Notes under the pieces: generated by a model
What the model was told of the DNA's origin: nothing
What the model saw: only the letters and a program-made list of their open reading frames with translations
Database searches by the model: none
Position numbers and translations under genes: made by a program
In this document: one piece after another, positions 1 through 59,940 of the stretch
Numbering within the stretch: the stretch's first letter is position 1
Layout: every line of letters starts with the position of its first letter
NCBI GenBank assembly: GCA_963693365.1
Contig: CAVNZM010000007.1
Coordinates: forward strand, 8,553,962 to 8,617,961
Direction of reading: 5' to 3'
DNA length: 64,000 nt
Origin: Amoebidium appalachense
Taxonomy: Eukaryota; Protista; Ichthyosporea

Positions 1-1303
1 CCACACACTGCTGCAGAACCCCAAGCACAAGCTCCCCTACAGGCAACCGACTAGGTGCCCCCGCCGCATACACTGCAAAAATGAAGAAGAAGAAGAAGAA
101 GAAAAAGAAGAAGAAGAAGGGGGAAACAAAGACAGTCAGTACGACGAGAAAACAAACACGTGCGCACTCACAGGCAGAGGGGTAAGGCAGATACGAAACA
201 ACTTGTTACGATCCCCATCTGACTATATAAAACACTCAAAGAAAAACACCAAGTCAGTACAATGAGCGCATATACACGCGCACAGATACCCAAAGAGAAC
301 AAACAGTAAACCGTTACGACCCCCACCCAAATGATTAATCTTCTGACAATCCTACACATGGTTATCTCTATGAGAAAACGATGGTTTTGTGATCGAAAAG
401 GCCCCAAAACACGAAACCGCTCTCACCCACATAACCCCCATAAATCAGATGACCGCTGAGAGGTAGATCTGACGAGACTCTCGAGAGGGTCAGTGGAAAT
501 AGGGTATGCATTCCGGAGGCCGCCGCAGGGGGAGGGGGGGGGGGGGGGGGGTTTGAATGCGGAACACGGTACGAAGTACGCATACACGATGAGAAGCATC
601 GTGCAGGACACATGCAAAGGCAAACATTCAAGTATGCAACATCATCCATGCGCACAGTATGCGTCATAAGCAGAGCCCATCCTCAGGGAGGGCCCAAGTC
701 ATCAATTGCGTCTGAGTTTCGACCCCCTAGCCCGCGTATATACGACTCTCCAACTCAGACAGCAGCATCAACTGAACATGGGAGGGTCAACCCGTCTTGA
801 TCAAAGACGAGCAGGGTTGCTTATGCAAGCAAGGTAAAAAACGGTGAAGATGTGAGTGCAAACTAATGCAGTGCAGCGAAAAATGTGTATGTGCTTACAG
901 ATGCACGACACAGAGCAACCATGCCCGGTTGCATGGAAGTAAAGCGGTCTCCACACAGTGGTCTGTCCTGAAAGGACACCTTTGAAAGAAGACTGGGGGG
1001 GTTTGAATGCGGAACACGGTACGAAGTACGCATACACGATGAGAAGCATCGTGCAGGACACATGCAAAGGCAAACATTCAAGTATGCAACATCATCCATG
1101 CGCACAGTATACGTCATAAGCAGAGCCCATCCCTCAGGGAGGGCCCAAGTCATCAATTGCGTCTGAGTTTCGACCCCTTAGCCCGCGTATGGGGGGGGGG
1201 GGGGGGGGGAGAGAAGGGGGGGTTACAGTGTAGAAAGTACATATTCATGAATCTCAACACAATGCAGAAAGCTAAGCACGAATGAAGAGTGTGGATCATC
1301 CGA

Positions 1304-5955: not shown

Positions 5956-8900
5956 AGGAAAAAAAAAAAAAAAAGAAAGAAAGAAAGAAAGAAAGAAAGA
6001 AAAGAAGGAAAAGGAAAAGAAATGGCAGGACACCAACGAAACAAGAAAGAAAGAAAGAAAGGAAAAGAAAAAGAAATGGCAGGACACCAACGAAACAGAG
6101 ATAGAAGGGGGGGGGGGGGGGGGGGGGGAAGCAACCCCCTCTCCCTTCTCCCCCCTCGATGTCCACATACACAAATATGGTATGTCCCCCCTCCCCCCCC
6201 CCCCCCACACACACACACACATACACACACATCACACACACACTCACACACTCACTCACTCACTCACTCACTCACTCACACATCACACACACACACACAC
6301 ACAAACACAAACACAAACAAACACACTCACACTCACACACACAATACTCACCTGTGTGTGTGTTGCTTCCTTGCCATCCATGTATTCATGTTTTGTTGTA
6401 TTTGATGGATGAAAGCTGCCAATGCATGTGCATGCAACCCCCTTCCCCCCAATCCCCCCAACCCCCCAACCCCCTCCTTTTTTTTTTTTTTTTTTTTTTT
6501 TTTTCTTTTTTTTGTTTGTGGTGTGTTCTCACATGGTTGTTTATCTGCAGTCTGTATGCCATCACGGCCAAGGTGGCACCGACCAAGCGGTCGGGGGGAA
6601 TAGAGGTGCTGGAGGGGGATACGTTCAAGTTGCACTGCCTGCAGACACAGACCGGTATGCGGGGGGATATATATCTTCTACGGCAAATAGTTTTTTTCCT
6701 TTCTCTCTCTCTCTCTTTTTTTCCCCCTTTCCCCCCCTACTGATAATATTTCTTTTTTCTTTTCCTCTCTCTCTTTCTTTTCTTTTCTTTTTTCGCCAAC
6801 TCCCCGCACTGCCCTTTTTTTTTTTTTTTTATTGCTTATGTGTTTTGTGTTGTGTGGTGGATTAGCTTATGTGTGGGGCGAATGGGACGCAGGGATGTTT
6901 CAATGAGTGGATATGGGGCTGTATTTGTGTCCGTGTGTGCTTGTCGGTAGGTGGGTGTGTGTTCTTGTGTGTGTGTGTGTGTGTCTGCACGTATGCTTGT
7001 TTCGGGTCAAAAAGGGGACACCCCCGTCGTTACTGAAGGCTAGCTCGTGTGTTTCTTGGTGGAGGCGTAAACGAATGTTGTGGTGAGGTGGTTTTTGGTT
7101 TGTTTAATTTGTTTGTTTGTGTGTGTGTGTGTGTGTGTGTTTGCCGGGGGGAGGGGAGGGGGGGGGAGAGAGAAGGCTGGATAGGTATGCTAGAAACGAC
7201 TGGTCTTTTTTGTGTCGACTTGTGTGTGGGGTGTCAAGCATGTGTGTGGGTGTGGGTTATTGGTGAGTTTGTATGTGTGTGGAATGTGTGTGTGTACATC
7301 TGTGTGCATGTTAAATTTTCAGGTTGCCCTAGGTTTGTGGTATGCTGGGGACCCGGTGTGCAAGGAGAGAGACAAGAGCTAGGAGCCTGTGGTTTTGTTT
7401 GGTTGTTTTTGCTTCGGTTTACAAGGGCGTGAACATATTGCATGCTGCTTGGTTTTGTCATGTTGTCGGTACTGTTGCATCCCCCCCCCCCCCCCCCCCC
7501 CCCGCTTTACTTCCATGCAACCGGGCATGGTTGCTCTGTGTCGTGCATCTGTAAGCACATACGCATTTTTCGCTGCACTGCTTTCGTTTGCACACACATC
7601 TTCACCGTTTTGCTCACCTTGCTTGCATAAGCAACCCTGCTCGTTTTTGATCAAGACGGGTTGACCCTCTCAAGTTCAGTTGATGCTGCTGTCTGAGTTG
7701 GAAAGTCGTATATACGCGGGCTAAGGGGTCGAAACTCAGACGCAATTGATGACTTGGGCCCTCCCTAAGGATGGGCTCTGCTTATGACACATACTGTGCG
7801 CATGGCTGATGTTGCATACTTGAATGTTTGCCTTTGCATGTGTCCTGCACCATGCTTCTCATCGTGTATGCATACTTCGTACCGTGTTCCGCATTCAAAC
7901 CCCCCCAGTCTTCTTTCAGAGGTGTCCTTTCAGGACAGACCGCTGTGTGGAGACCGCTTTACTTCCATGCAACCGGGCATGGTTGCTCTGTGTCGTGCAT
8001 CTGTAAGCACAACGCATTTTTCGCTGCACTGCTTTCGTTTGCACACACATCTTCACCGTTTTGCTCACCTTGCTTGCATAAGCAACCCTGCTCGTTTTTG
8101 ATCAAGACGGGTTGACCCTCTCAAGTTCAGTTGATGCTGCTGTCTGAGTGGAAAGTCGTATATACGCGGGCTAAGGGGTCGAAACTCAGACGCAATTGAT
8201 GACTTGGGCCCTCCCTGAGGATGGGCTCTGCTTATGACACATACTATGCGCATGGCTGATGTTGCATACTTGAATGTTTGCCTTTGCATGTGTCCTGCAC
8301 CATGCTTCTCATCGTGTATGCGTACTTCGTACCGTGTTCCGCATTCAAACCCCCCCCCCAGTCTTCTTTCAGAGGTGTCCTTTCAGGACAGACCGCTGTG
8401 TGGAGACCGCTTTACTTCCATGCAACCGGGCATGGTTGCTCTGTGTCGTGCATCTGTAAGCACATACGCATTTTTCGCTGCACTGCTTTCGTTTGCACAC
8501 AAATCTTCACCGTTTTGCTCACCTTGCTTGCATAAGCAACCCTGCTCGTTTTTGATCAAGACGGGTTGACCCTCTCAAGTTCAGTTGATGCTGCTGTCTG
8601 AGTTGGAAAGTCGTATATACGCGGGCTAAGGGGTCGAAACTCAGACGCAATTGATGACTTGGGCCCTCCCTAAGGATGGGCTCTGCTTATGACACATACT
8701 GTGCGCATGGCTGATGTTGCATACTTGAATGTTTGCCTTTGCATGTGTCCTGCACCATGCTTCTCATCGTGTATGCGTACTTCGTACCGTGTTCCGCATT
8801 CAAACCCCCCCCCCCCCCCCCCCCCCCGCGCGGACGAAAAAAAAAAATGAAATGAAATAGAAAAATATGAACGAAATAAATAAAAAAATAAAGAGAAAAG

Positions 8901-13039: not shown

Positions 13040-13076
<37 letters not shown>

Positions 13077-13397
13077 TTGAATGCGTCAAAAAGTACGAAG
13101 TACACAAGAACAAACGGATAACACGATGCAGAATGCAAGCCATACATAAAGAGTATGCATAATAAGCAGAGCCCATCCTCAGGGGGGGCCCACGTCATCC
13201 ACAGTACCCGAGTTTCGACCTATTCCCCTCGTTAACGAAACCCAACTCAGATACTGTTTCACTTGAACATGAGTAGGTCACCCGTCTTGATCAGAGACGA
13301 GCAGGGTTGCTTATGCAGGCAAGGGCAGTGGGAAAGGCCGGGGGTTAAAGTTGCAGCAGTAAGCAGAAGCAAGAAAAATAGGGGGGGGGGGGGGGGG

Positions 13398-20054: not shown

Positions 20055-20563
20055 GGGGGGAGGGATAGGGGAGGGCCGGGGTTGAACGAGCCATAAAGTA
20101 CGAAGTACACATCCACAACGGACGATGGGTACGGTTGCTTATGCAAGCAGGCAACAGGCAAGGGCAGTGGGAAAGGCCAGGGGTTTAAGTTGCACCATCA
20201 AGCAGAAGCAGGAAAAAACGGGGGGTTTTCAGGCTGATATTTCCGATATAAATAGTGTGGGGTGCCTACATGAGCCAGTGCGGCAAGGTATCTGGCCGGC
20301 AGGCTGCCAGGGAGCAGTTTTGCCCTCTGAAGTACGTGGATGGTGCGGTGGTGCTGGCCCGCTACAAAGTAGGCATTGGCAAGGTGGTACACATCCTCGG
20401 CAGCCCCTGCACACAAACATATTATAATACACTTCGGCCCTCCCTCATGTCCGGTCCGCCTACTACCTCTCTCCCTCTGACTCGCTGCATCTTGCATCTG
20501 TCTCCCACACACTCACTTTTACTCTCACTCTCACTCTCACTCTCACTATCACTCACACACACA

Positions 20564-20651
<88 letters not shown>

Positions 20652-22051
20652 CCTCTCTCCCCTGCGCCCCCCTCCCCCCCCCCCCCCCCCCCCCCCCCCC
20701 CTTTCACTTCTCCCTCCACACACCCTTCCCCACCCAAAACGCACACACCCGCAACCCACCACCGTCAAAACGACCGATTCCTCAACTCGCCCACTAGCCC
20801 TCCCTTCCCCTCTTCTGCCTGCAAGCCTCCCCATATCTAGATCACCCCACTAGAATCGAATGAAACCTTTAAAACACCCCCAAAGGGCACCCGAAGACTC
20901 CCCCCCCCCCCCCCCCCCCCCCCCCAAAATTCCACATGCACAATAGTATCATCACCCCCTGCAGTATAGAGCAGGTTGGGTGCTCTGGGGGAGGCGAGAA
21001 ACAGGGAGGGGGAGGAGGGATGGTGCATGTGTGGCAAAGAGAAAGATAGAGGGCCAGGGCATGGCCGTTGCCGGGTGGGGGGCCCGGGGGGGAGAGGGGG
21101 GGGGGGGGGGGAGGGGGCGACAGGGACAAGACTAGGGGGGGGGGGGGGGGGTGATTGTGTTGTGTTGCGCATGTAGCACACCTTTTGACAGGCACACGGC
21201 CTTGTCTGCCCAGATAATGGCCGTATCGTGCAGGTGCAAGTCTAAATACTCCTGCCGCTTGGCCCGTGTCTGGGCAAGCAGTGCAGTGGCTGTGGCCGTG
21301 GGTGCACCTGTGCCTGCACTGCTTGTTTTTCTGGACAGGTGTGCTTGTCAATAGGGCGTGAATAAAAGGGGAAAGTAGGAATGGGGGGTACGGGGGAAGG
21401 GAGAGGGGGGTTTCGCGAGAGGAGTGGGAGGATGGGAGGGTGTGGGGGGGCGCCGGGGGGGGGGGGGGGGGTGGACTTGTGGTGGCCAGTAGATAACCAC
21501 TGTGAAAAAGCAAGGAGTGGGGATGCGCATTGATGAAGCAGCTGTTGTTCGATCACTAGAGCTGTTCAGGGTTAACTAAAGATGGAAGGGTGTAGCCAGA
21601 GACGAACGGGTGGTCATGAAGAAAAAAAAAGAGTAGGTATGCGTGTTGTGCGTGTGCATCTGTAGGGGAGGGGGAGAGGGGAGAGGGGGAGGGAGGGGAC
21701 GGAAAATGGTAAGGTGGGGGGAATGTAAGGTTTACCAATGCGCAGGGGTAAAGGGGGGGGGGGGGGGGGGGGGGAGCAAAAAGAATAAAGAGCAAGAACG
21801 TTCACCTGCGCACATGGAGCCCTCTAAAAATCAAGTGCACAAAAAAATGTAGCACAAAAACCCCGCCTTATGCACACACGCACGCACGCGCCCCCACGCA
21901 CTCTCGTGTGTGCCCACACAAACACGCACGCACGCACGCACGCACGCACGCTGACGCACACCACATACACACATGCACGCATGCACGCACGCACGCACGC
22001 ATGCACGTACGCAAATACACACAGAGAGGCACAGGCACACAGGTACACACA

Positions 22052-22102
<51 letters not shown>

Positions 22103-22112
22103 GCACGCACAC

Positions 22113-22193
<81 letters not shown>

Positions 22194-22320
22194 CCAACTT
22201 ATGCTAGACTTTCACCTCCCCCCCCGTGCTCCCAACACTTCGCTACCGCACATACCTGAGCCCAGCCGCATTGCCAGACAACTCAGGCTTTGCCTGCTGT
22301 CGTCCGGCCCCAAGCCGCAT
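10723..22320 (-). CDS. CDC16: Anaphase-promoting complex subunit 6 (Cdc16/Cut9, TPR repeats), ~15 exons
   Basis: Exons 22320-22256, 21330-21182, 20406-20270, 19661-19616, 18762-18719, 18060-17947, 17411-17366, 16727-16624, ~15848-15722, 15017-14817, 14168-14043, 13025-12873, 12481-12341, 11779-11644 and 10830-10723. Motifs include AIIWADK, CYRQALKKDVFCAEAF, DPHHTGCLEVHVVCLTEL, AWFAVACYY, ARRYFSKA, GFGHSFASAGEHDQAMASY and HQELGVVYY. One exon is off by 1 nt at a G12 run. Confidence 0.92.
13075..13380 (-). mobile_element. G-tract-inserted structured repeat, subfamily B: ~305-bp monomer in a CDC16 intron
   Basis: Starts with a G tract then TTTGAATGCG and ends at a G tract. Shares core blocks ATAAGCAGAGCCCATCCTCAGGG.GGGCCCA.GTCATC, GAGTTTCGACC, CCAACTCAGA and CCCGTCTTGATCA.AGACGAGCAGGGTTGCTTATGCA with subfamily A; the remainder is diverged. 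Confidence 0.85.
20082..20219 (-). mobile_element. Core-deleted derivative of subfamily B G-tract element in a CDC16 intron
   Basis: G tract, then TTGAA..AAAGTACGAAGTACAC joined to GGTTGCTTATGCA..CAGGCAAGGGCAGTGGGAAAGGCC..AAGTTGCA..AAGCAGAAGCA, then a G run. Matches both ends of 13075-13380 but lacks the ~160-nt core. Confidence 0.7.
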
Positions 22321-23730
22321 TTTGCTCAACTATACGAGCCGCTGCCGCGCAGAGAATACAGAACCACAAAATTGTCGTTCCTTTCTATGAAGGTGTATGA
22401 AGGGGCGAGGGTGTGGGTGGTGCCTATGTCCACCCTACACTAGACTAAACTTCAGGTGCACACAACTACTCAATCGAACTGGGACTGAGGCGCAAAGGGG
22501 AACCAGCATAGTCACTTGAAGAAGAAGCAGCGTGCCTATGCGTCTGCGTTAGCCCTGTGCAGGCTGTAAGTAACCGTCTCGCGAGACGTGCGTTGCCAAG
22601 ACTCATGACTGATGCCGCAACTGGCAGAGCTTCAAGTGTTCCTGCAGCTGCGAACTTCCCGCCATTTTCGAATAACCACTTATGTCTTTCTATAGGCTCC
22701 TTTGATTGGGTACATTATTTGGACGCCCGGTCCCCCGGCCCCTCCCCGCCCCCTCCCCCCCCCCCCCCCCCCCCGGCCCCGCGCGGGCCTCCCAGCCCCC
22801 GGGACCCCACGTCGGCCTCCCGCCCTCCCCCCCTTCCCCGGGCAATCCCCCCCTCCCCTCTTCCCCCCCCCCCCTCCCCCTCCTCCTCCCCCCCCCCCCC
22901 CCCCCCCCCTCCCCACCCAAATGGCCACAAACTGTCACCACCGCCATCAGCTGGTCTACTGGCCACACGTAGCACGTGTACACAGTGCACAGGCACACAC
23001 ACGCACACACGCACGCACACACACACACACACACATGTCTATTTATTACAGCCAGTAGGTGGCTGCCATATATCCCTTACCACCCTTCCATCATGACAGA
23101 CTCATCAGAATTATGACAAACTGCATCGAGCTGGGAACATGTATTTCCAAATCCCCCCTCCCCCCTCCCCCGCGCACTGGGAGCCATAGTGTTTACGTTA
23201 TTAAAGGGTGCAACTAAGAATGATTTGCAGCAAATACTCGCTTTGCTCACAATGTTGTATAAGGATAGAAAAATGTACTATGATACAGATGATGTATATG
23301 TACCCGTGCATGTTCCAGTATTTGAACGTCCCACAGCTGGCTCAGTAAATCAAATAGAGAGGAGAGGGACCCAGATTTGCGATTTCCATTAATTAATGTT
23401 AAAGTGCACCCTATCATACATGTAATTTGCTAAGAGAAATTTATTTGACTTCATTTTCTTTCACACCAGGGCTATGACTTACACAGGTTTGGATCGATAC
23501 CACATGTCTCTGATTTGATCTTGCCCTGCATTTTCGCACTTTCGACATTCGCAACTTAGCAAGCGGTTATCTGCTACGTGTAGGGAGGAAGGTTTAGGTA
23601 AAAGAATGATTACTTGTGGAGGAAAAATATAAAATCCACAATAAAACTGCCACAAGACTTAAAACTCCACAATAAAACTGTACGTATTGGTCGGTAGGGT
23701 AATCGTGTGTTGATTAAGTTACCGGTTTTT

Positions 23731-23761
<31 letters not shown>

Positions 23762-23930
23762 GGGGGGGGGGGATCCAAAATATTTCCGAAGCCTTCGGAA
23801 ACCAAACCTCTACATACAGCGGTAACCTATCAAGGTGTGTTTCATTTGAAAGGTAAGGTTGATTCGTGCATTTCTCATTGTTGCGGCAATTAAGGCACTA
23901 GTCAAGACAAAAACAATTAACTCAACAGGG

Positions 23931-23964
<34 letters not shown>

Positions 23965-24111
23965 GACAAGTCATCAAATTTGTTTGGTTTTTTTAAGTAT
24001 TTGAGCGTCATCAACACGCCACCTAGAAGCTCGCGAGCACCCCAAAAGGCCTCACATTGCATACTGATTCACACACATACTTAGCCATGGTGCGACCTCT
24101 CCTCACACCAC

Positions 24112-25012
24112 TCAAACCGTAACAGATTGGTTTTCCGGTGTTTCTTCGACCACATTCTGCTCCACTGTTTGGTGTTCCTTAGGCAAACAAGCAGGGCTAT
24201 TACCACTCTCCCCATTTTCTGCATCCGGAACCCCGTTTGATTCGGCCTCTCTTCTGAATATTTCCATTTGCTCGCATTTGATTCGATCCAAGTCATCCGC
24301 TGAATATCTCTGTACCGCCCACACCGTTAGTACAAGTCCCATAAGGTGCACGCCCGCACAAACAATAAGGATTTTGGGTATGCGATAGCTTCTTCCAGTG
24401 GGGGGAATGTGTATGTGGCCAAGGCACACAACAAGCACACACACAGGCACCATGCCCAACCTGCAGACACACACATAGAACAAACCAACCTTGCAACCCT
24501 AGACTCTTAGATCATTACACCGTAGCCACCCAATATGTACAACACCATATACTATTAGGCAGCCACCCACCACCACCAGACCCCAACATACACCACTATC
24601 CCCCGTAAACCCACCCACACCACACCACACATTCCACCACTTTAGATGAACCAATGAGAGCCAAGTTTTCAAGTTTATTCATAGGTTCTGAATGGAGGGG
24701 AAGCCTGGTGCTACCCACCGGCGTGGCTGGGGTTGATACCCTGGGCAAAGTGTGTACATATAGTTAGGATTGTTATAGGTGTGTTAGTTTAACTAATAGC
24801 ATCGTAGCACCCTAGCTAGATTACTGTCGGTGCTGGGTGGAAGACGGTAGTTCCCCCTGAGGGGCCCTAGGGGCACCTCCGGGAACAAAACGGGATAGAA
24901 TAAAAATTAAAATGTATGTGGCCAAGGCGGCACCCAGCTTGCCGCATGCTGCACAGATACCACAGCCAGACAACTCAGGTTTTGCCTGCTGTCGTCCGGT
25001 CCCGAGCCGCAT
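24112..25012 (-). pseudogene. Chimeric CDC16-exon1/PHO84-C-terminus pseudogene, interrupted by an insertion and a frameshift
   Basis: ATG at 25012 reads MRLGTGRQQAKPELSG (CDC16 exon 1 copy) then CGICAACGKLGAALATY (PHO84 copy) in one frame. It resumes after the insertion with a 1-nt deletion near 24383, then IPKILIVCAGVHLMGLV...QSVTV*. Confidence 0.8.
24426..24912 (+). mobile_element. 487-bp non-coding retro-insertion (SINE or LINE 3' end) with 16-bp target-site duplication
   Basis: TGTATGTGGCCAAGGC at 24410-24425 and 24913-24928. The insert is absent from the intact PHO84 copy and ends with a GTTCCC...GGGAAC hairpin (24850-24886) followed by AATAAAAATTAAAA. Confidence 0.75.
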
Positions 25013-25423
25013 TTTGCTCAACTATACAAGCCGCTGCAGGCAGAGCATACAGAATTGCCTAGTCGCACCTTTCTATGAAGGTGTGTGAGGTGGGCGGTGT
25101 GGGTGGTGCCTCTGTCCACCCTACACTAGACTAAACATGCAGGTGCACACAACTAGTCATTCAAAATGAGGCGCAAAAGGGAACCAGCATAGTCACTTGA
25201 AGTAGTAGCAGCCTGGCAGGTGTACCTATGAGCCTGCATGAAAGTTTTATGACATAGGCTGTGCAAACAGGGTGTACAGTATGTAGATAACCGCCTCGAG
25301 ACTTTGTGCTTGACAGACTGAGGTGGCCGCGCAGTCGCAGATCGGGAATCCGAATTTCCCGTCATTTTTGAATAACAGCTTATGGCTTTCTATAAGCTCC
25401 TTTGATTAAGTCACAATTATTTA

Positions 25424-25464
<41 letters not shown>

Positions 25465-25947
25465 GGCCCCTCTGTCAGCCTCCCAATCCCCCCCCCCCCG
25501 ACCGCCCGCCTGCCCGCCCACCCTTTACATGGCCTCCCATTCGAAAAAATTCCTTTGCCCCGGGATATGTATCTGCATTATCTCGCCTTTTCACGTCATA
25601 TGAGCACATCAATAAAGTCATCCTGGAAAAAGGAAAAAAAAAATCAAGGCCGCGTGGTACTCATATTTAATTCATCACTATTAGCACTGCCCCGAGGGGG
25701 GGGGGGGGGGGGGGGGGGGGGGAGGGGGGGGAGAAAACGGGGAGGAAGGGGGGGGGGGGGGGGGGGAGGGGGGCTCCTACTAGTATGACTTGCAACGGTG
25801 ATATGTGCGTGTGTGGCGGTGGTGGTGGTGGTGGGGGGGGGGGGGGAGGGGGGGAGGGGGAGAGGGGGGAGGCGCGGGGGGGTTTCCTATGACCAACGGT
25901 GATGTGTGTGTGTATGTCACGTGGTGGGGGGGTGGGGGGCGGGGGAA

Positions 25948-25993
<46 letters not shown>

Positions 25994-26255
25994 TAGGTGG
26001 GTTGGTGGGGGGGTCGACGCCCCTCCAATGACCATAACGAATCTGTATGGCTGTACATTTGCTTTTGGCGATTGCAAGGAGACACGGCCAATGTTGTCAC
26101 AGAAGGAGCTAATGCATCCTTCGCCTGTACGAGTCAGTCATTGATCCGGCCCCCCCTTCCAACTCCAAAGGGACCCAACCCCTTCCCCCCCCTTCCCACC
26201 ACACCGGCCACGTGCACCACCACCTGGTCTACTACCGCCACACGTAGCACGTGTC

Positions 26256-26290
<35 letters not shown>

Positions 26291-26348
26291 TTAAGTGCAC
26301 ACACACAAGCACGCGCGGGCACACACACACACGCACGCACACACACAC

Positions 26349-26385
<37 letters not shown>

Positions 26386-26623
26386 TACACGCACACATGC
26401 ACACACGCACACACGCACACACACACACACGCCTATCTAGTAGAGCCACTAGCCTACCGTAGTGGCTGGCGTATATACCCCTTACTTAACAACTTCATCG
26501 CACATCATGGCCACCCTTCCATCATTATTGATGGCCTCTTCAGAATTGTGGAAAACTGCATCGGCCGGCAACATGCATTTCCTTCCCCTCCCCTTCTCCC
26601 TCCCCCCCCTCCCCCTTCTCCCC

Positions 26624-26665
<42 letters not shown>

Positions 26666-27635
26666 CCCCGCCCGCCCGCCCCAGGGAGCACACACTGGGG
26701 GCTAATGTGTTTAGGTAAGAAATTGAAGCAAAATATTCGCACTTTGCTCCCAAGTATGGAATAATGTGCTGAGTATACAGATGGCGTACATAGTACCGTA
26801 CATGTTACAGTATTTGATTCTTATGCATGATCCCACAGCTGGCTCAGTAAATTAAATAGAGAGGAGAGGGACCCGGATTTGCGATTTCCATTAATGTTCA
26901 CCGTTAAAGAGCAACCTATCATACATGTAATTTACTAAGAGAAATTTATTTGACTACATTTTCTTTCACACCAGCAGGGCTATGACTTACACAGGTTTGA
27001 ATCGATACCATGTGGCTCTGAATAAATCTTGCCCTGCATTTTCGCACTTTCGATGAATTTCGCAACTTTGCAAGAGGTTAACTGCTATGTGTAGGGAAGA
27101 AGATTTATGTAAAGGAATATATTTCTTGTGGACGCAAGATATAAAATCCACAATAAAACTGTACGCATTGGTCTGTAGGACAATCGTGTGTTGATTTGCT
27201 TTGTTTTTGGTCGGGCAGAGGGGGGGGGGGAGGGGAGGGGGGGGGAGGGGAGGGGGGGGGGGGAGGGGAGGGGAGGGAGGGGGGGATCCAAAACATTTCC
27301 GAAGCCGAACCCAGATCTCTAACATACAGCGGTAACTGATTTGTGTTTTGCGTTTGAAAGTTTAATTCGTGCATTTCTCATTTTTACGGTAATTAAGGCC
27401 CTAGTCAAGACCAGAACAACTAATTCAACAAAAATTAAACTTAAGAGCATTTTTTGTCATCAACAACGTCAAAAACAGTTGACAAGTCATCAAAATGTGT
27501 TTTTGTTTTGTTTTGTTTTGCGTGTTATTCGAACATCATCAATACGCCATCTATTGCTCGCGAGCACCCCAAAAGGCCTCACACCGCACTATTCACACAC
27601 TTGCTTACCTATGACGTGGCCTCTCCTCACACCAC

Positions 27636-29205
27636 TCAAACCGTAACAGATTGGGTTTCCGGTGTTTCTGCAACCACATTCTGCTCCACGGTTTGATGTT
27701 CCTTCCGCAAACAAGAAGGGCTATTGCCACTTTCCCCCTTTTCCCCATCCGGAACCGCGTTTGATTCGGCCTCCCTTCTGAATATTTCCATTTGCTCGCA
27801 TTTGATTCGATCCAAATCATCCGCTGAATATCTCGGTACCGCCCACACCGTTAGTACTAGTCCCATAAGGTGCACGCCTGCACAAACAATAAGGATTTTG
27901 GGTATGCCGATAGCATCCTCCAGTGGGGGGAATGTGTAGGTGGCCAAGGCTGCACCCAACTTTCCGCATGCTGCACAGACACCGTGAAGGGTGGCTTTAA
28001 CCTGTTGAGACAAGGCCGGTTAGCTGGTTCCTAATGTAATTGTGGGGGGTGTTGTTGGCGTAAAAAAAAGTGCGGAAAGCCATGTGCCCACCAAGCGAAA
28101 AGGGGGGAGTGGAGAGGGCGAGAGGAGCCCCAGGGGAGAGGGGGGGGGGGGGGGGGGGGCACGGGAGGAGGGGGGGGGGGGGGGGGGAGGATGAGACTGA
28201 GCAATGAAACAAGGTGGGATGGAAAGGACGAAGGAGACTAGCTATAGTGGTAGGAAAGGCGGGCGGGCCGGGGGGGGGGGGGGGGGGGGGGGAAGGGGGG
28301 GGGGGGAGAGGAGAGGGAGGGGCACGGAGGAGGGGGGAGGGGGGTGGGGGGAGGGAGGGAGGAAGGGAGGGGGGGTGGGGGATCGGGGAGAGGGGGGGGG
28401 GGACGGGGGAAAGAGAAGCCTCGGGGGGGTGTTGGGAGCAAAGAATGAGGAGAGGGCAAGAAGAAACTTGGTGTCGATTTCAGAAACAATGAAGTGAAGG
28501 AGAAGAAGCACTAGTGCAGATGAACGGGACGGAGGAAAGAAAACATGGGGGCAGGTAGTGCAAATGTGAGGGGTAGGGGGGGTGGGGAAAGGCCCCCGGA
28601 GTGGGGGGTGGGGGGGGGGGGGGGGGGAAGGGGGGGGGAAGAGGAGAGGGGAGACGGCATTGGAATAACTTAAAATCACACAAGGACCCGAAGGAGGGGC
28701 GAGAGGCGGGGCGGAAGCGGGGTGTGTGTGTGTTGGAGAGGGGGAGGGGAGGGGAGGGCAGGGGGGAGGGTCCAAACCTCAGCAGGATAGTATTCTCCGG
28801 GAATGATGTAGGTGGTAGCATTGGGTCCAAAGTTCGAAAACAAAAACGTAAAACCATAGAGGGTGATGAAAAGGGCAGGCATACTCTGCAGGGCGTCAAA
28901 TTCAAACCCAAGAATGGCAAACAGAACGAGAAGAATAGAAAACCCTCCTGTTTGTAGGTTTTTGCGGCCGATGGGGTCGAGAAATGCGACGGTGAGGAAG
29001 TAACCCGGCAGGGCGATAAGAGCCAAGATGAATGCGTTGAGAGCTTTGGCTTCCAGTGTGTTTCCTAGGCCCATCACCCTACACCCCTGCGGGTTAGTTG
29101 CTCTCTCTCTTGCTCTCTCTCTCTCTCTCTCTCTCCCTCTCCCTCTTCCCCTCTCTCCCTCTCCCCCTCTCTCTCCCTCCCTCCCTCCCTCTCTCTCTCT
29201 CTCTC

Positions 29206-29272
<67 letters not shown>

Positions 29273-32200
29273 CACATGTATATCATATATATCCTCCCCC
29301 CCTCTCCCCCTCCCCCGTCTCTCTCTCTCCCCCCCTCCCCCTCTCCCCCCTCTCCCCCCCTTCCCCTCTCCCCATTCCCTCCCCTTCCCCCCTCTCCCTG
29401 CCTATGATAGATGCGCTGTGTATATGATCTGCAACATGCGGTTACAAGATAGGTACCTAAGTCCACACGTGCACCAAACAAACACATGAGGAAAACTAGT
29501 GCATACTATGGGGTTTACAATGGATATGCGGTAGAGAGTGAGGTACGGTATCAGATCACTACATGCAGTCCGTGCGCACGTGCAAATGCGGAGCATGATA
29601 GTCTAAACTTTGAGGGGTTCTGTTTGCGGAGCATTCACATGTCAAACAACACGTCCGTACATGTATCGAGGCATAGTTATTAGTCATAAATAACGCAAAA
29701 GATGTAATTGGTTAATTATAAATCATTTAGTCATAAAATACCGTGCGCAAAAGATGCAGTGTTATGAGCAGCACCGAATGCTCACGATTGCAGGAAAACG
29801 TAGACACTGGGGAGCTTCAAAATCACCAAATTATCGACCAATAGACATGAGTAGGAATATAGTACTTACTCTGTGATGTGAGCGGTAAACAACCCATTTC
29901 CAAAAAAGGTAACATCCAATAGAAACCACGTCCCAGCCGTGCCCAGTAGAGGCTTCCAGAACACCCTGGGTGCAGCCAGCAAATTTCTCGTATGTGACGA
30001 GCGTGCTGCTTTTGCTTCTTGGAAGTCGTGTGTTTCTTCCATCGTCCACCGGAGATAAACACAGCTGAGTGAGGGAAGCGCACCAAAGGCAAGCCCAAAC
30101 CGCCATGTGAACTCGTACGAGGCACCCCTGTGTGTTGTATTGCACGGATTAATTTAGCAACGTTATTAACAGTCTCTTGAACTGCCAATAAAATGCATAC
30201 AGCTTCACCTGCACCGTCTTGCCTGTATGTCATGGTTAAGCTGCTGGAACCAAGGATGTGTGTAATAAAAGGTATTCTGTGCTCATAGATACTTGCTGCA
30301 AAGTTTCCGACTACACTGTGCAAAAAACATGATGGCACAATCCCTCCCCCTCCTCCCCAACCCCTCCCCCCTCCCCCCCTTCCCCCCAACACACACACAC
30401 GCCTCCCACCCCCCTCCCCCGGGGGCCCACACTGCACCCCGAAAAAGAAAAAGAATAAAACAGTTAATACGTTTTTCTTGTTTTTTTCGTATCGCCTCCC
30501 CTGTGTCACTCACACCTTGCAAAACACACCAGTTACACCCCCACCCGAATGAAACACACATACTGGCACACGCGTACGATTCATCAGCTCTGCATCATCC
30601 CTCTCCAAGTCTAGTGGAGCCCCAAAAAATATTTTCCCCGCCAAACACCCGTCCTGACAAATCCTTCCCTGGCACGGGGGTGTACTTACGCTTTCACGCA
30701 CACCAGCATCACAGCAGTTGCCAGCAAGGCCCCCACCCCCTGCATAGAAAACACGGCCGCCATAGCTCTCCCGCGTGTTTTTGGTGTCGATGATTCGCAC
30801 GCAATCGTAGCAGCCAACGGGTATTCCCCACCCACACCAACCCCAAGAATAAACCTCCATATGGCCAACTGGGTATACACGCTAACATGTTGCGTCTGCA
30901 CACACGTGCACGAACCGAGTGCACCTATGGTGATAAACAGACATGTTGAGAAAAAACACACACGACGGCCCATATAGTCGGCAAAGGTGCCAAAAAATAG
31001 CTGGCCCAAAACGGCCCCCCATAGGACGGTGGATGCAACCGCACTCTTGTCAGTGGATGTTTGGGGATATATCTGATGGCACAAGACCCGGTTACTGAAA
31101 TGTCCAGAACTCGAACGGTTGACAAAGCCCATTGTTTCGACGCGTCAACTTTGAATCCGAGGTGCCTACATATTCAATTAATGCATGCAAACACACCATA
31201 GCAACTGGTTCGCCGACGGGGTACCAGCTATCAAACAGAAGGTTGAAAGTGCATAGCGGGGTGAATGCGCATTTATACAGGTGTGATCACATTTAAAAAA
31301 CTGCAGCTGTGATTGCATACAACACACGCGTTGACACGCTCAATACATGCCTGCGCATGATACGCACATGCAACAGTACACATCCACGGCAACGCATAAC
31401 CGGGCCTTGCACCATGCCACGTATGGAAGTGCGTAAAACGGACATGCACACACACCAGCGGGCCCATTAAACACACCCACACACACATGTCCCGTGGTGC
31501 AGACAGTGAGAGATCTGTAACTTTGTATAAAACGAAAATGCGCGCCGATGATGCACACGAACACGAACACATAGCCTAAGGGCAGGCATGTGCATACCAT
31601 GATATGAACTATCAGATCCTGGTCGTGCGCACCAACACACAGCGGCAATGAACCCTCACAGTTGATTGCCACAAGCCCTGTGTGGCATCACGTGCACACT
31701 AAAATACAAAGCCTACTGCCAGACCTACTTGCTAAGGTTGGACGCCCCAGTTTCACCCAGATAGCAAAAGCCCCTACGTATGTAGCACATTAATTTTGGT
31801 CTATAACGATTGCTTCAGTCGATGATACATGGAGCTACATAGCATCCACACGCACAACTACGTGCACCTTGCACGCAGCACACGATGGCATGCACGAATT
31901 TGCCCCAGGTGACAAGTGTGCTGAATGAAGCAGCAGGTCACAACCACATGCATTATGGTCTATAGCCCCCCTAGCTTAGCACTTATCTAGTTTGAAGGCA
32001 TACCCGCATCATATGGAGGCATTCCATACAGAAACAAACCATTCAGGTACAGAATGAGGTCTAGACCCATTGCAGGACCTCGAGCGCATGCAAAGTCTTC
32101 TCACATACATAGCCATTTCTATTTGTTCCTGCTCTTTAAAGTTGTGTTTTTTTCGGGGGTGGGGAATATGATACTCTCGAGGGAAAAATACTAGCTTAAA

Positions 32201-32512
32201 AGAGCAACATACCTCAGCCATGACGGCGAGAACCATGTTGATAACGAAGAGGGCATATGCATCGGCAAGAAAGCCGGCCCCGGCAAGGATCACCCGCTCA
32301 AATTGCCGTGCCGCCTTTGCTGCTTTGTGTCTGTAGGCATGGGGAGGCCCAACACTGGCAACAGACGAAGGGCAACTTGCAGTCGTGCGCGGCATGTCAA
32401 AAGCGTCAGAGTTTGGGTCGGAGTCAAAGCTAGCACCCTCATCGTTGTCGTGGACGTGGCAGTCGTCTATGTGTATCTCCGCCCCCTGCAGTTTCTTTGT
32501 GGGTGGATCCAT
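27636..32512 (-). CDS. PHO84: MFS phosphate:H+ symporter family protein (PHO84/PHT1-like), 5 exons
   Basis: Exons 32512-32213, 31072-30690, 30127-29870, 29078-28778 and 28001-27636 are in phase. Motifs: AGAGFLADAYALF, GQLFFGTFADYMGRR, WRFILGVGVGGEYPLAATI, RGRAMAAVFSMQGVG, LLGTAGTWFLLDVTFFG, NFGPNATTYIIPGEYYP and HGVCAACGKLGA. Confidence 0.92.
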
Positions 32513-33614
32513 CTTTTCAGCTGCAGACGTCAATTACGGAGGGCGTAGGGTGGTAGCTCGGTGCAAGAAACTGTGCACATGCATGTAAACCGTGAGAACC
32601 GCTACATTCATGCACCCGCCCACAATATTTGACGGGCTTCAAATGGTTCTAGGTGTTAATCGGTAATGATGCAGCAATAACTCTGCAAGGCTGCTGTGGT
32701 TTTGTTTTCGTTCAAGTTGAACGAGTTTTGTGAGATTTTGTGGAGATTACCGTAATGTTACGTGCACAAGCATGCAACTACAACTGCAACTGTCACTTAC
32801 GAGTGCCTGACGCTAGCAATTGAAACAGTTAGGCATTCTTTATGAGTGTGCTTCATAGTACTCTCTGTTTGTTTTCAACAACGTCGCTAGTTTGCAACAG
32901 AAACTTCACAATCAGTTCTTTACCGATACCAAATGAATGTGATGTGACGTGAAGGTCAGCTGGTGTCGATACCTTGAATGCTTTCCAAATTTCGAATGAT
33001 TGGCCATTGGTTAACTTTTTGAATAGCTTTTCGGTGGTTCAAACACATGACAAATATCTAATCACGATCTCTATCGAAAACCACGACGGCGTGACACAGA
33101 TACGTTATTTCGCCGGAAAAAACGGCAGGTGATGACAACGGGGATGTGTCAGGATGCCTTTTCATTAATACAAACTGCCTAATTACCCCCTTTTATTTGT
33201 TTTTTGTGCCTTTTTTCCCAGAAATAAATGACAAACGAACGAGGCTGTAAGAACACGCGGCAGCAAATTCCGATAACATTTTCCAGGATGTTCGGGGATG
33301 ATGCGGCTTTTATCTTCGACAAATAAGAATCTATCAAAAAAAGCCATATGAGTCAAGTTCGAGGATCCCCTAAAACTCATATGTGTGGGGCGAGTCGTAT
33401 TTATGTAACAGCGAGCGGATTTACGATTTTCCAGTTTCGACATTTATGCCACGTAAAATTCCGTTACAGACATAGGACTGCATGTAGTTCTACATATAGT
33501 AAAAATCAATAAATTTCCACTAAATATGGGTATTTTGGTAGGAGGGGGCTCCATTTTCCGTACTTAATAATTACATACTGTTACGCACATATGGAAACGG
33601 GGTCTAAGATTCCC

Positions 33615-34879
33615 TTAACCGAAGATGTCATGCACCAGATGCTTCGTCAGGTGGATCAATGGTGCACCGAGAATCTCATGACAGTCGGAATTGCAAAGTG
33701 TGCTACTTTTTCGAAGAACACTTCCTTTCGATTGGCCGGCCTTCCTATTCCTGTTCAGAGCACCTATGACTATTTGGGTATTCCTTTTACTGCACGGGGT
33801 ATTGATTTCCGCAAGCTCCTCACGGCACGGATCGCTCGTGCGAAGGGTAAGCTTCACATCGTGTCAAATATGTTTCAACAGGAGTCTGTGATCCATCCTG
33901 CGAACCTTCTTCTCTACTATAAAACTTTTTTACGGCCGACTTTCGAATATGGACTTCCGCTATTGGCCTGCGCCCCACCTCGCGAGGCGGCAATGGCGCT
34001 GAACGAGTTCGACGATTTTCAGGGTACTGCGTTACGCACTTTGTTTCGTACTCGGTTTGTGCCTCCCTTAATCAGTATGTTTGGATTGTCGTCTGCTGTT
34101 TGTCGTATGGAGGAATCGTCTCTTCGTTTTTGTTTTCATTTAGTTAGGCTACCTGATGGTCACCCTCTTTATGCTTTCTTTCCCCCCCTCCCTCCATCCC
34201 TCTTCCCCCCCGATTCACCAACGCTACTTCTGAATGTCCTCAGCCTACCCTCTTTCCACCTGATTCTTCCTCTCGCTATATATCTCACTCCCTCTAGATT
34301 CCTTTCTCTTCCTGTTTTTTCTGCCTTTTCGCGTTATTACCATACGCAGTATAAGTTTCTTTCTCGTTCTGATAGACAAATCAAAGGTAAAACTCAGTCG
34401 GCATGTGTTATGTTCCTTAGGCAACACCGTACTGATCACTATCTTTGGCAGGATACATTTCTCCTGCTGTACGTATGGATACCACCCTAGTAGATAAGTC
34501 TGTATGGTGCTCTGATGTTGATATTGCCTGGGAAGTTGTGCAGTGGCGCTGTAATTCTTGTTTTCATCGCCGCTGGTGCCACTTTTGTGCTGACCTTTTT
34601 AATCGCAAGCATGTTGATAGGTGTGAATTTTTATGTCGCGTTTTACCTCTTTCCCTCCGGGTATGTGCTACACTAGCTGGCAATGTGAACACTTTAGACT
34701 TTTTGTTGAATTCTGTTGGTCGTCACATTGAGTATTTATATGATTTTCACACAGTGTTCAGGTATCTCAGTATGCACTTGTTACTGGATAACTCGTGAAG
34801 TTTTTGTTGTCTTCTCCGTATGCCGTGCATACTTGCATCTCTTTCCGTTGAATAAATCCAGTCAAAAGAAGAAAAAAAA
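33615..34879 (+). mobile_element. 5'-truncated non-LTR retrotransposon (LINE): RT C-terminus/thumb and C-terminal Cys/His motif, A-rich tail, 9-bp TSD
   Basis: ORF 33591-34490 contains WCTENLMTVGIAKC, YDYLG and LLYYKTFLRPTFEYG (RT domains 6-7 and thumb). A second frame carries CHFCADLFNRKHVDRC. AATAAA is followed by an A-rich tail at 34864-34880. AAGATTCCC is duplicated at 33606-33614 and 34880-34888, so the ATG at 33591 comes from flanking DNA. Confidence 0.88.
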
Positions 34880-35249
34880 AAGATTCCCGGGAAAGCAGGT
34901 ACGCGTCAAACGGACGCCCGCCTACTTAGAAGTGTTGGGGGATCCAGTTCGACAGGATTCTACAAATCACGGATTTCGCGTCAGCTGATTACCGGCTGGC
35001 TCATCGTTGTGGACCGGGTACTAGCAAACCCATTGGCACAAACTAAAGTGGCTTAGAGACTTATCTAGGACCATAAAATCCAGTATCATGTTTGAAAATA
35101 TCGATGGAAGGGGGAAGTGGGCTCATTGCAGGGATTTCTGCATAGCCAACCCCATGCTGGTCAGTGCTCACTGCAATCTCAAAATTCCATTCTCAACAGC
35201 TGACCACCAGGGCTCACTGGATGATTGGGCAGATCTTGGGATGCATGGA

Positions 35250-35388
35250 CAGGGTTCGAATTTGTTTTTGAAACTTTGGGGTAGGGTCCAAATTGTTTGG
35301 GATTTGCCAAAGAAAAATTGGGATCTTTGGGAATCCAGGGAAAAAGTTTGGGAGATTCCCAAACTTTTTATGGGAATTTCGATCCCTG
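35250..35388. mobile_element. 139-bp hAT-type MITE
   Basis: TIRs CAGGGTTCGAATTT and AATTTCGATCCCTG. 8-bp flanks TGCATGGA (35242-35249) and CGCATGGA (35389-35396) match at 7/8. Internal TTTGGG(A) subterminal repeats. Confidence 0.75.
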
Positions 35389-36377
35389 CGCATGGATAAA
35401 CTGAGCCGCTGTTACAATCGGGCGTTACCGATAGAACGGAAACCCTTATATGTATAATATGTGCAAGTAATTTCTTTATATTCTTTGCTCATCTGTAAAA
35501 TGGTTCCCAAATACGACGTATAATTTCTCACCAGGCAGCCAGGTCTCTTGTCTATGTCTACATACTACTACCACTGTTGTAGCCATTCTGCGAATCCGAG
35601 TGTCTCAAATAGATCTACAGCCGGAGCTGCGCAGGCTCCGAGCTCGTGAGGACTCGCGATCGAAACTACCGGCGTACGTACTGCGAACGGTACCGGTGGG
35701 GGCCAGGCGCTGCACGTCGACGATAAGGCTTCCGGGCCCCTTTGGAACCCTATTCACTGCATTAGCATGTATACATATATATGAGTATGTACGTATATGT
35801 ATACCCAAAGTGTGATTGCTTGGTTTGAACTCGCTATCGAACAATATGTACATGGCGAGGTGCCGCTGCCGGCTCCGGATCCTGGCAGCTGGGGGCGAAC
35901 ATGTAGCAAGCCCAACACGGCCAACAGGCCGTGTTGGCCCGAAGCTTGTACAAGCGCGTGTGTGCGTTTTTGTGTGCGTGCGTGTGTGCGTGTGTGTGTG
36001 TTTGTATGTGTGTGCGTGCGTGGGATGTGCGTGCGTGTGTGTGTGTGTGCGTGTGCATAATATGTGCATGCGTACGAATCCGTGTCACTGATGTGTGCTC
36101 GCGCTCGTGTGACGGTGACAGAGTGCGCGTGCTTGCGTGTGCATACGCGTGTGCGTGCGTGTGTGCGTGTGTGCGTGCACACGCCTCAGGTGTGTGTGTG
36201 GAATCATGCCACACACGTGTGCGCTGCCTGGGCGTATGCGTGTTATTACTCTATGTGCAATCAATATCATGCTAATGAATGTAACCCAGTAGCACAACAG
36301 CTCTAGATCTCGTTGCAACAAAATGGAGGCTTTTAGGTCCTAGGATCCGGATGCATGACACAAACATGCATCTTCAG

Positions 36378-36430
<53 letters not shown>

Positions 36431-37191
36431 CTCCCCCCCGGAAGCTCCTCTCTCTCTCTCTCTAAAAAAAAAAAGAAAAAAAAAAAAAGAAAAAAAGAAA
36501 AAAAAAAGAAAAAAAAAAAGGAGGGGTACAATATGAAAGAGGGTAAGACAATGAACTAAATTACATAAATGTCCTGCTGCAAGAGTCTTTATCTACTCTG
36601 GCCTGCAGAGGAATAATATGGCAAACAATGTCTGCCAAGACGGGTTGGTTCCAACCGCATCCCAACCGCAGCCCTTGCCTATACGGGCTGAGGATTGACA
36701 AACTACGTATCATACATGTACATGTATATCCTACGTGTGCCTTATTTACTGCAAGAGGTTCTCTACACAGATCACGTGATCCCCGTCCATCTCTCCCCCC
36801 CCCTCCCCAAACACCCCCCCACCCACCCACCCACCTCTCCCTCTCCAAACACTTCTGTACATGTTTTGAGGTTGCAGAAGCCAATACGCTGTGTCTTTTT
36901 CACACTAGAAGCACTTTCTACCAACAAAACTACCAACAAAAAACGCCTCGTGGAAGAATACAAAACATTCAGAACCAGAGCCACGAAAGATGTGCACCGT
37001 TTAAAATGCTATTATCAGCAACGAGAACGGCCATTCAGACACACGTGTACAGGCAAACTGTGTGTATGTCATTCAGATGAGTGGTGAGGGAATGAGGGAA
37101 AAATGGAGAGTGAAGTGAGAAAGAAGAGCAGAATGAAGAAGCAAGAACTTCTTTTCTTTCCGGTCTTCTTTGTTGTGTGTGTATGCGTGTT

Positions 37192-37281
<90 letters not shown>

Positions 37282-37498
37282 GTGGGGGGAGGGGGGGGGG
37301 GGGGGGGGGGGTTGCTTCATTCAGAAACGTGCAAAAATGTCAGACGGGAATAATGCCTCCAAACCCTTCACCCGTTCCGATCTTGCACCCACGGTATGGC
37401 TTTAGTGCGCCTCCCAGTGCAATGCAGTGGTGGGGTGTCCTGGTTGATAGGTGGGTCCTGAATGGATATTGTGGGTTAGGGAGTGCAATCGGAGCCCC

Positions 37499-37534
<36 letters not shown>

Positions 37535-37608
37535 ACTACACACACCAACAAACACGAACATTCCACACCCATGACACACCTCGACATCCACCTTTACACC
37601 GACCGCAT

Positions 37609-37679
<71 letters not shown>

Positions 37680-38073
37680 CCCCACCGCGCAAAGCACACA
37701 AACAGACAAACACCATTTTCAACCTTTCTCCTGCTTTGGAGTATGTCCGCACGCGCTGAAGGTATAAACAATTGCAAACGACTAACATAGGCTAGAATGC
37801 AGCACAGCACACAGCTCCCCGTAATAGACGGAGTGTTCTTTATAATTGGGTTTCAGGTTTAGATAGTGGTGGCGGTGGGTGTGCGAACGTGCGCCAGTGT
37901 GTGTGTGTGCCGAATTGTGTGTGTGTACACACCGCAAGGTTTCCCTCCCTCCGTTCCTTTTCTCTTTTTTTTCACGCACTACTTGTTTCCATTTTCTTCT
38001 TCATCACCTTTTCGCCTTCCTCCTCTTTTTCTTACTCCCCCCCTCCCCCCCGCCCCATTTTCTTCTCCCCCCC

Positions 38074-38118
<45 letters not shown>

Positions 38119-38175
38119 ATATTTTCACGTGGGCGCCTTTTTTCCTTTTCTTTCTTTCTTTCTTTTCTTTTTTTT

Positions 38176-38223
<48 letters not shown>

Positions 38224-38250
38224 ACTTGTTTGTTAAGTTCAGGCCACAAA

Positions 38251-50875
<12,625 letters not shown>

Positions 50876-54605: not shown

Positions 54606-54671
54606 TGCGCCGACAACTCTAACACACATCAGTAAAATATCACATAGAAGTCTTTTTGTAACATATCTATC

Positions 54672-58186: not shown

Positions 58187-58217
<31 letters not shown>

Positions 58218-58218
58218 A

Positions 58219-58735
58219 GGGCCCAACCATATCGGCTGATCTAGTGAACTTGCTTCAAAGCAGAATTATTCTGCAAAAGGCAGAATCAATCTGCTAAAAG
58301 CAGAATTATTCTGCAAAAGCAGAATCAATTTGCTAAATGCAGAATTCTTCTGCTAAAAGCAGAATCACTCTTCAAACAGCAGGATTAATCTGCTAAAAGC
58401 AGAATCAATGTGCTAAAAGCAGAATCAATGTGCTAAAAGCAGAATCAATCTGCTACAAGCAGAAATGTTCAATATTAGTATGCTAAAAGCAGAATTATTC
58501 TGCTGTCGAAAGCAGACTGATTCTGAGTTTGCGTAATTATTCTGCTAAAAGCAGAATAATTCTGCTAAAAGCAGAGTTATTCAGTGCTTTTGCAGAATAA
58601 AGTCTGCTTTTTGCTGAATAATTCTGCTTTTTGCAGAATAATTCCGCTTTTGCAGAATAATTCTGCTATTTTGCAGAATAATTCTGCTAAAAGCGGAATC
58701 ATTCTGCTTCTTGCAAGTGACTCTGTCGATGTGGT

Positions 58736-58736
<1 letters not shown>
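58219..58736. mobile_element. PIF/Harbinger-like MITE copy 1 (right tip replaced by poly-C)
   Basis: Left end GGGCCCAACCATATCGGCTGA and right end TCTGTCGATGTGGTT. Internal 20-bp repeats CTAAAAGCAGAATYAWTCTG. Confidence 0.7.
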
Positions 58737-59553: not shown

Positions 59554-59940
59554 GCGCGCGCGAACACACACAATACATGCTACGTTCTCTTTCCCCATGT
59601 ACCTATTCACACGTCTACCACAAACACGCCACAGGCGCACACCGTAGTACTTATTTATACACGTCGATCAACGTGCGCACCTGCCAATAGCATACACTGA
59701 GTCTCGACGACACACATACGGTAAGTCAAATAGGAACCTACAGCACTCTAAATTCACACCAACACTAAAATTTTATACCAGGAGAAAGACGGATATGCAA
59801 AAAATCGATGCTCACATACTTCCGCATGCACTGCACGCACACACGCTAGACACACACAATCGTGTTAAACTTTGCACACGCGCACACGCACACACACACA
59901 TTCCACACGTGGATATACTCCGGCACCGTTACACAAACTA

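Follow-up and report, generated by a model that had tools for sequence, protein, structure and literature searches.

Several kinds of mobile repeats and self-cleaving RNAs resemble the element described here (all are cited for the parts of the publications that were available, and what is said of them applies to those parts). The non-LTR retrozymes of animals are non-coding tandem units of 150-450 bp, with one hammerhead each, that occur as monomers and multimers, and Penelope-like elements (PLEs) have been proposed as their mobilisers (Cervera and de la Pena, 2020, PMC7229834; bioRxiv 10.64898/2026.07.22.740005). Among the PLEs, the Chlamys elements insert at (C)n targets, show 5' truncation and partial tandems and are described without a canonical hammerhead (Craig et al., 2021, PMC8557442). 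Hammerheads of type SGC (HRIMA-1 and its variant), on the other hand, come from metatranscriptomes, and the accessible part of their description reports that the genomes of known organisms yielded none (Eckert et al., 2023, PMC10085705).

The repeat analysed here, found in a window of Amoebidium appalachense DNA (by window we mean the whole stretch of 64,000 nucleotides), is in contrast to the published SGC hammerheads a genomic mobile repeat (PMC10085705). It shares with the animal retrozymes the short non-coding tandem units, the single hammerhead per unit and the coexistence of monomers and multimers, but these have type I hammerheads and low GC (PMC7229834; bioRxiv 10.64898/2026.07.22.740005), whereas it has an SGC core and a homopolymer target and appears mostly as dispersed truncated copies. 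With non-autonomous Chlamys such as MRC1 it has in common the absence of coding capacity, the head-to-tail tandems, the (C)n target and the 5' truncation (PMC8557442); the Chlamys elements have been described in green algae, spike mosses and slime moulds, with no ichthyosporean in the accessible supplement (PMC8557442). Taken as a whole, we give a probability of roughly two in three to the reading that this high-copy non-coding repeat is a non-autonomous, retrozyme-like retroelement that a Penelope-like reverse transcriptase (RT) of the Chlamys/Naiad type copies in trans.

The initial annotation listed six loci, and both BLASTN and nhmmer recovered these six with the same boundaries and no others in the 64-kb window (the next nhmmer match had E=1.5). 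They belong to two subfamilies, A, with a unit of ~445 bp, and B, with a unit of 306 bp, plus an internally deleted B-like copy. Subfamily A includes an array of 2.9 units in the sense strand of an intron of a TRAPP/sybindin gene (7503..8804, + strand), in which a 5'-truncated unit 1 (7503-7899), unit 2 (7907-8349) and unit 3 (8360-8804) are joined by C7 (7900..7906) and C10 (8350-8359); an array of 1.4 units (552..1190, - strand) with a complete unit (552-995), a C7 joint and a partial unit (1004-1190); and a 5'-truncated monomer of 391 bp (38871..39261, - strand). The short C runs described earlier between array units are thus present at all these junctions. Subfamily B, entirely on the - strand, is represented by a full-length monomer of 306 bp flanked by long C tracts (13075..13380) and by an 86-bp 3' fragment in the sense strand of an RFX intron (49213..49298) that is identical to the end of the monomer, while the B-like copy of 138 bp (20082..20219, - strand) keeps the unit start and the 3' end but has the ribozyme core deleted. 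Over a core of ~180 nt A and B are 79-80% alike, and in the final 30 nt 81-82%; the remainder differs. Outside the window, public contigs contain more subfamilies that have the GAAA block or the 3' part in common and diverge upstream, with breakpoints corresponding to positions 7805, 8198, 8245 and 8322. The element was correctly described as lacking a conserved ORF (Pfam had no match to its ORFs, and the longest that start with ATG encode 111 and 105 aa) and terminal inverted repeats (there were zero reverse-strand self-matches within the loci). Rfam had no match to the window at its gathering score, nor to the trimer even with E relaxed to 10, and ARAGORN found no tRNA.

The single fixed end that had been claimed is a constant of the family, as all six loci finish in TTCAA(A/AA) followed by C, with a short and interrupted C run in the case of the 20082 copy. 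AA plus a C run is also found at the sense 3' end of four of the five (C)n-family Chlamys consensus ends examined (PMC8557442). At the other side, every one of the six loci has a same-strand run of at least 6 C immediately 5'. There are 325 such runs on both strands of the window, which makes the chance of finding one 0.0076 per 5' end and ~2e-13 for the six. Around the trimer these flanks are two C23 tracts, at 7481..7503 (+), the putative target or target-site duplication, and at 8805..8827 (+), the putative priming site, where the genomic G strand would pair with the oligo-C of the RNA. The proposal that this other end is variable does not always hold: the 13075 and 20082 copies begin at most 2 bases from the same unit start. 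The idea that most C tracts are themselves ultra-short insertions finds no support, as TCAA stands before just 2 of the tracts outside the element.

An abundance of C tracts (146 of at least 10 nt in the window) could also favour spread at the DNA level, with a satellite-like or Helitron-like repeat, a solo LTR or a fragment of a longer transposon entering C tracts by recombination, and one copy of a MITE-like repeat (58216-58736) is likewise bounded by C tracts. However, the end pattern of the element is strictly polar, there are neither TIRs nor TG..CA ends, changes of the G.U type favour one RNA strand and the ribozyme core is confined to that strand. Such strand-specific RNA structure largely refutes a DNA-level origin, which we consider very improbable.

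The distribution of complete and truncated units fits a reverse transcriptase that starts at the fixed end and copies a tandem or circular RNA: the full-length start of the A unit is seen only at internal junctions (3/3), the internal A units are complete (3/3) and the outermost ones are all 5'-truncated (3/3). Units of the same array show 2-3 differences per ~400 nt among themselves versus 10-17 between loci (full overlaps), and those of the 1.4-mer differ at 2 sites in 186 nt. This near identity indicates that each array derives from one source rather than from serial insertion. A single circle as template predicts 0 differences, and since the units of the trimer differ at 2-3 sites, it is only one possible template; repeat misassembly may also explain these differences. 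No public contig bridges an empty site at 7503-8804, in a comparison that skipped the homopolymer flanks, and several joints were found in public contigs in which a truncated copy begins behind the C tail of another copy. Overall, several features favour the retroelement interpretation of the initial annotation: the fixed 3' end, the truncation at the 5' side, the polarity of the C runs, the likeness of array units and a read depth that rises towards the 3' end (see below). That non-autonomous head-to-tail elements target homopolymers is not new, having been described for the Chlamys PLEs and MRC1 (PMC8557442).

The most conspicuous component of the element is its core, which has all the conserved nucleotides of the hammerhead in the non-circular order S-G-C (cleavage site, GAAA, CUGANGA) and is predicted to be a type-SGC ribozyme. 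It shares with HRIMA-1 and its variant this block order and the conserved core nucleotides and, in addition, an extra U, a helix that joins stems I and II and a U at the cut site (PMC10085705). We scanned both strands of the 64 kb with a descriptor that permits all six block orders, written after the sequence had been seen, and obtained exactly three hits, all of them SGC, in intact copies of the element and on the strand of the C runs, with stems I/II/III of 4/2/8, 3/2/12 and 4/2/8 bp. Shuffles of two of the copies gave 2 hits in 20,000 each, and 0 once stem III was set to at least 7 bp. The three intact cores, all on the - strand, lie in the 552-995 unit, with the cut predicted after 752, in 13075..13380 (after 13244) and in 38871..39261 (after 39055). 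A hammerhead in canonical order, even with one mismatch allowed, is absent from the window, and sequence words of the HDV, twister, pistol and hairpin ribozymes were not found in it. Similar pattern scans for relatives gave 0, 1 and 0 loci in viral contigs, 0 and 8 in metagenomes and 2 in prokaryote genomes; these 11 loci had no likeness to the element beyond the pattern and were taken as chance matches. By eye, the core was not apparent in the last ~450-600 nt of five Chlamys and five Naiad consensus entries, in the part of them available.

In unit 3 of the trimer the SGC blocks extend over 8598..8679 (+), with S (cut predicted after 8604), G (GAAA at 8636) and C (8670), but the core G5 is changed to A at 8672 and the unit is hence predicted to be inactive. 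The identical lesion is found in unit 1, at 7767, and in unit 2 one U is missing from the cleavage site; the core is broken in all three trimer units and in the partial unit 1004-1190. The G5 to A change is the one that Eckert et al. (PMC10085705) use to abolish cleavage. Dead ribozymes that yield longer, uncut templates would fit this trimer with broken cores, which is a single case.

The finer features of the core resemble the published SGC hammerheads to different degrees. The extra U after CUGANGA, the sole concession of the descriptor within the core, is found in 51 of the 52 rows of the published SGC alignment examined, and U at the cut site, assessed by eye, in 4 of those 52 (PMC10085705). 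The pairs G10.1-C11.1 and C15.2-G16.2 match the consensus. Stem I has 3-4 bp (GGAG/CUCC in A, GGG/CCC in B) and stem III 8-12 bp, the latter with covariation, but stem II consists only of G-C plus G.U, a duplex of +2.3 kcal/mol, while the published SGC rows have 4-5 bp. A helix of 4 bp, found in 5/5 distinct rows, links stems I and II at their far sides; being invariant, it offers no covariation. The linker between the two stems measures ~3 nt in the published SGC ribozymes and 21-25 nt, with a hairpin, in the element (PMC10085705). At the 20 positions of the core and of the kink-turn (see below) there are 0 differences between A and B, versus 33 in the 173 aligned columns overall (P=0.011).

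The structured core that A and B have in common (8531..8691, +, in the unit 3 copy) comprises a closing helix P1, a hairpin P2, a pseudoknot helix, an extension of stem III and the SGC hammerhead. The structure derived from A, when tested on B, was significant on the strand of the C runs (P=0.012-0.033) and not on the other, while in the reverse test the B-derived structure was not significant on A (P=0.14-0.19). Since the A fold is retained in B only on the C-run strand, this strand is likely to be the RNA. For the named active fold, the structure of which was partly chosen by eye, we counted 6 double-sided changes versus 1.5 in shuffles; the covariation amounts to one comparison of A with B, and all six changes come from a single B row. 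One of the two pseudoknot compensations is further weakened by position 8573, which varies among T, A and G across the family with no change of its partner in the 40 of 67 variant rows shown. Whole units, linear or circular, do not fold better than shuffles (z -0.67, -0.9, 0.0), which indicates that there is no rod-like circle.

Below stem III the model includes a probable kink-turn (K-turn), a motif made up of a C stem, a 3-nt bulge, tandem G.A/A.G pairs and an NC stem. In the B copy (13195-13266, -) it passes a strict K-turn pattern that random flanks pass at 0.4%, and A misses the pattern by one C.A mismatch in the NC stem. The 3b-3n position is U.U in A and A.G in B, and the four G/A positions are unchanged in 6/6 rows. 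Such a K-turn would bend the helix back, letting the third block reach stems I and II. The accessible supplement on the published SGC ribozymes has no kink or K-turn term (PMC10085705), whereas the element combines the probable K-turn with an outer P1/P2 domain.

Alternatively, the fold might no longer cut, or cut too slowly, and serve to bind the RT. The element would then be a (C)n-targeted non-autonomous PLE, MRC1-like, all copies of which derive from transcripts that are linear tandems (pseudo-LTR), no circle being involved. The 2-bp stem II points in this direction, as does a competing hairpin (-14.2 kcal/mol in A, -11.6 in B) that buries CUGAGGA in the predicted minimum-energy fold. Four loci span the predicted cut site, the non-identical units of the trimer were inserted in spite of their dead cores, a coreless copy exists (20082-20219), and Chlamys and Naiad are reported to proliferate without canonical hammerheads (PMC8557442). 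Against this, every catalytic nucleotide and the extra U typical of SGC have been kept while A and B diverged at 33 of 173 columns, and G5 is the majority letter in the deep sequencing runs (at 8672 in both, at 7767 in one). We regard a fold that does not cut as unlikely, although it is the strongest of the alternatives.

Less probable still is a SINE-like element with an internal Pol III promoter, moved into G/C tracts by a LINE. Any target-primed process gives a fixed 3' end and 5' truncation, subfamily A has A-box-like and B-box-like words (one mismatch each, 25 nt apart) and the window does contain a LINE remnant. But the boxes lie in the middle of the unit, overlapping stem III and the GAAA block, the three T4-T5 runs of each A unit would end Pol III transcription before a full unit was made, neither a tRNA nor an Rfam match was found, and head-to-tail partial tandems are typical of PLEs. 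The remnant itself (33617-34881, +), the only trace of an RT in the window, is a 5'-truncated LINE with an A-rich tail and an apparent 9-bp target duplication, AAGATTCCC, and its ORF at 33513-34490 is RT thumb-like (Atlas lead RVT_1, 16% of one cluster). Its tail, its duplication and a 3' sequence unlike that of the element speak against a SINE relationship, and because of its different tail it was rejected as the partner. None of the 145 ORFs scanned (of 645 in the window) corresponds to a Penelope-like RT.

Returning to a retroelement copied by a Penelope-like RT, we read its behaviour as that of a retrozyme or a non-autonomous Chlamys that primes on genomic G tracts. The retrozyme-like label of the initial annotation is favoured by the presence of the SGC hammerhead core, but the class definition requires a type I hammerhead, and with the wrong hammerhead type the element is not a retrozyme by definition. 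In the mechanism that we propose, the C-run strand would be transcribed, plausibly within host pre-mRNA given the copies in sense introns, and the ribozyme would make a single cut in each unit, at a GUU that lies 169-200 nt before the 3' end, releasing RNA of unit length, which ligation may close into circles. A nick in a genomic G tract would then let this tract pair with the oligo-C of the RNA and prime cDNA synthesis. An early stop would leave a truncated copy and a stop at the next oligo-C a full monomer, while synthesis that continued round a circle or along uncut tandem RNA would give the 1.4- and 2.9-mers; joining of the 5' end to this same G tract would leave the copy between two C runs. 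A comparable pairing, between a C-rich RNA stretch beside the hammerheads and a G-rich DNA end, is described for the EN-minus PLEs Athena and Coprina (PMC8557442), but these target telomeres and encode their RT, whereas the element is internal, genome-wide and non-coding.

Regarding the genomic setting, four of the six copies are in the sense strand between or just after host exons, of the TRAPP gene, of an APC/TPR gene (twice) and of RFX, and the remaining two share the strand of the nearest upstream exon. Within the APC-subunit gene, the 13075-13380 copy sits between TPR exons on the sense strand and the 20082-20219 copy ~50 nt past the GT donor of an exon. The C tracts themselves are partly sense-biased, so this pattern is only suggestive. 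Vertebrate retrozymes are depleted from introns (bioRxiv 10.64898/2026.07.22.740005), in contrast to the four of six copies found here in sense introns. As for the host genes, the RFX DNA-binding exon is 95% identical to an Ichthyophonus protein, with none of the 119 other matches listed exceeding 80%; together with the MFS matches given below, this places the host among the ichthyosporeans, which are unicellular relatives of animals. A homolog search with the APC exon gave no matches.

Sequence of the unit was present in 20 of the 24 sequencing runs listed, none of these 20 being an RNA run, which speaks neither for nor against transcription. We compared four runs, in two of which the flanks of the loci were also covered, at depths of 28-40 and 11-17; in these same two (the deep runs mentioned above) the element reached 1e5-7e5 and 2e4-4e5 except for one bin per run, and in the other two only parts of it were found, at low depth. 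Folded onto one unit, the depth was 21,000-39,000 and 11,000-42,000 times that of a single copy, values that are overcounted sums and not copy numbers. The read depth points to thousands of copies, and its magnitude agrees with six loci per 64 kb. Along the unit, the folded depth climbs from 5' to 3' and is 1.7- to 3.8-fold higher at the 3' end in the two runs. A depth step by the predicted cut site, seen in one run, was set aside because it is confounded by other subfamilies.

The literature, in a search that covered few subscription papers, holds no account of this element nor of any genomic SGC hammerhead; for type SGC it returned Eckert et al. alone, and for hammerhead, kink-turn and Penelope together nothing. 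A 2026 paper cites hammerhead permutations and, in the part available, names no genomic cases (PMC13725137), the accessible text and supplements of an ichthyosporean genome paper mention neither Penelope nor SINE (PMC11244446), and a 2026 preprint mentions neither Penelope nor Chlamys (10.64898/2026.05.21.726589). As SGC hammerheads have so far been only metatranscriptomic, with host and role unreported in the available part of their description (PMC10085705), their presence in a high-copy genomic element of a lineage that can be cultured would place them in a biological context and make them directly testable, the natural dead variants serving as built-in controls. It would also provide a candidate answer to the apparent absence of hammerheads in the Naiad and Chlamys PLEs: they may seem to be lacking because SGC wiring is invisible to standard descriptors and to Rfam, which can be tested. 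Besides, (C)n-targeted Penelope-like mobility would be extended to unicellular holozoans, and the question arises of how introns tolerate a sense-strand RNA that cleaves itself. More tentatively, and with the odds somewhat against it, a catalytically active, K-turn-assisted SGC hammerhead could drive a high-copy retrozyme that circularises from host introns and whose return to G/C tracts is carried out by an RT of the Chlamys/Naiad type. In that case the Penelope clade with an N-terminal endonuclease would have its 'missing' ribozyme in the scrambled hammerheads, with a history that extends to the unicellular relatives of animals, and the same machinery might contribute to keeping up the extreme load of G/C homopolymers in this genome.

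Other features of the window deserve mention. Its homopolymers of at least 10 nt comprise 146 G or C runs (median 21) versus 31 A or T runs, and its GC skew flips with the gene strand. The MITE-like repeat (59939-60341 and 58216-58736) has terminal inverted repeats of ~19 bp and an internal minisatellite of ~20 bp in both orientations; the copy at 58216-58736 has lost its right end and is flanked by C tracts on both sides. The RFX intron contains a degenerate tandem repeat with a period of ~37-50 bp (43794-44893). Close to a phosphate-transporter MFS gene (region 22273-27983) there are two duplications, 23261-24425 versus 26752-27950 (78%) and 22273-22835 versus 24965-25525 (73%), and the best named matches of this gene include two (prefixes Ihof and Nk52) that we take to be ichthyosporean gene models. 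Finally, an intronless ORF of 367 aa in a low-GC stretch (54648-55751, +) has weak GNAT similarity (Pfam E=0.047) and a divergent, degenerate-looking paralogue at 52987-53499 (-), and foreign or mobile DNA may have been inserted there.
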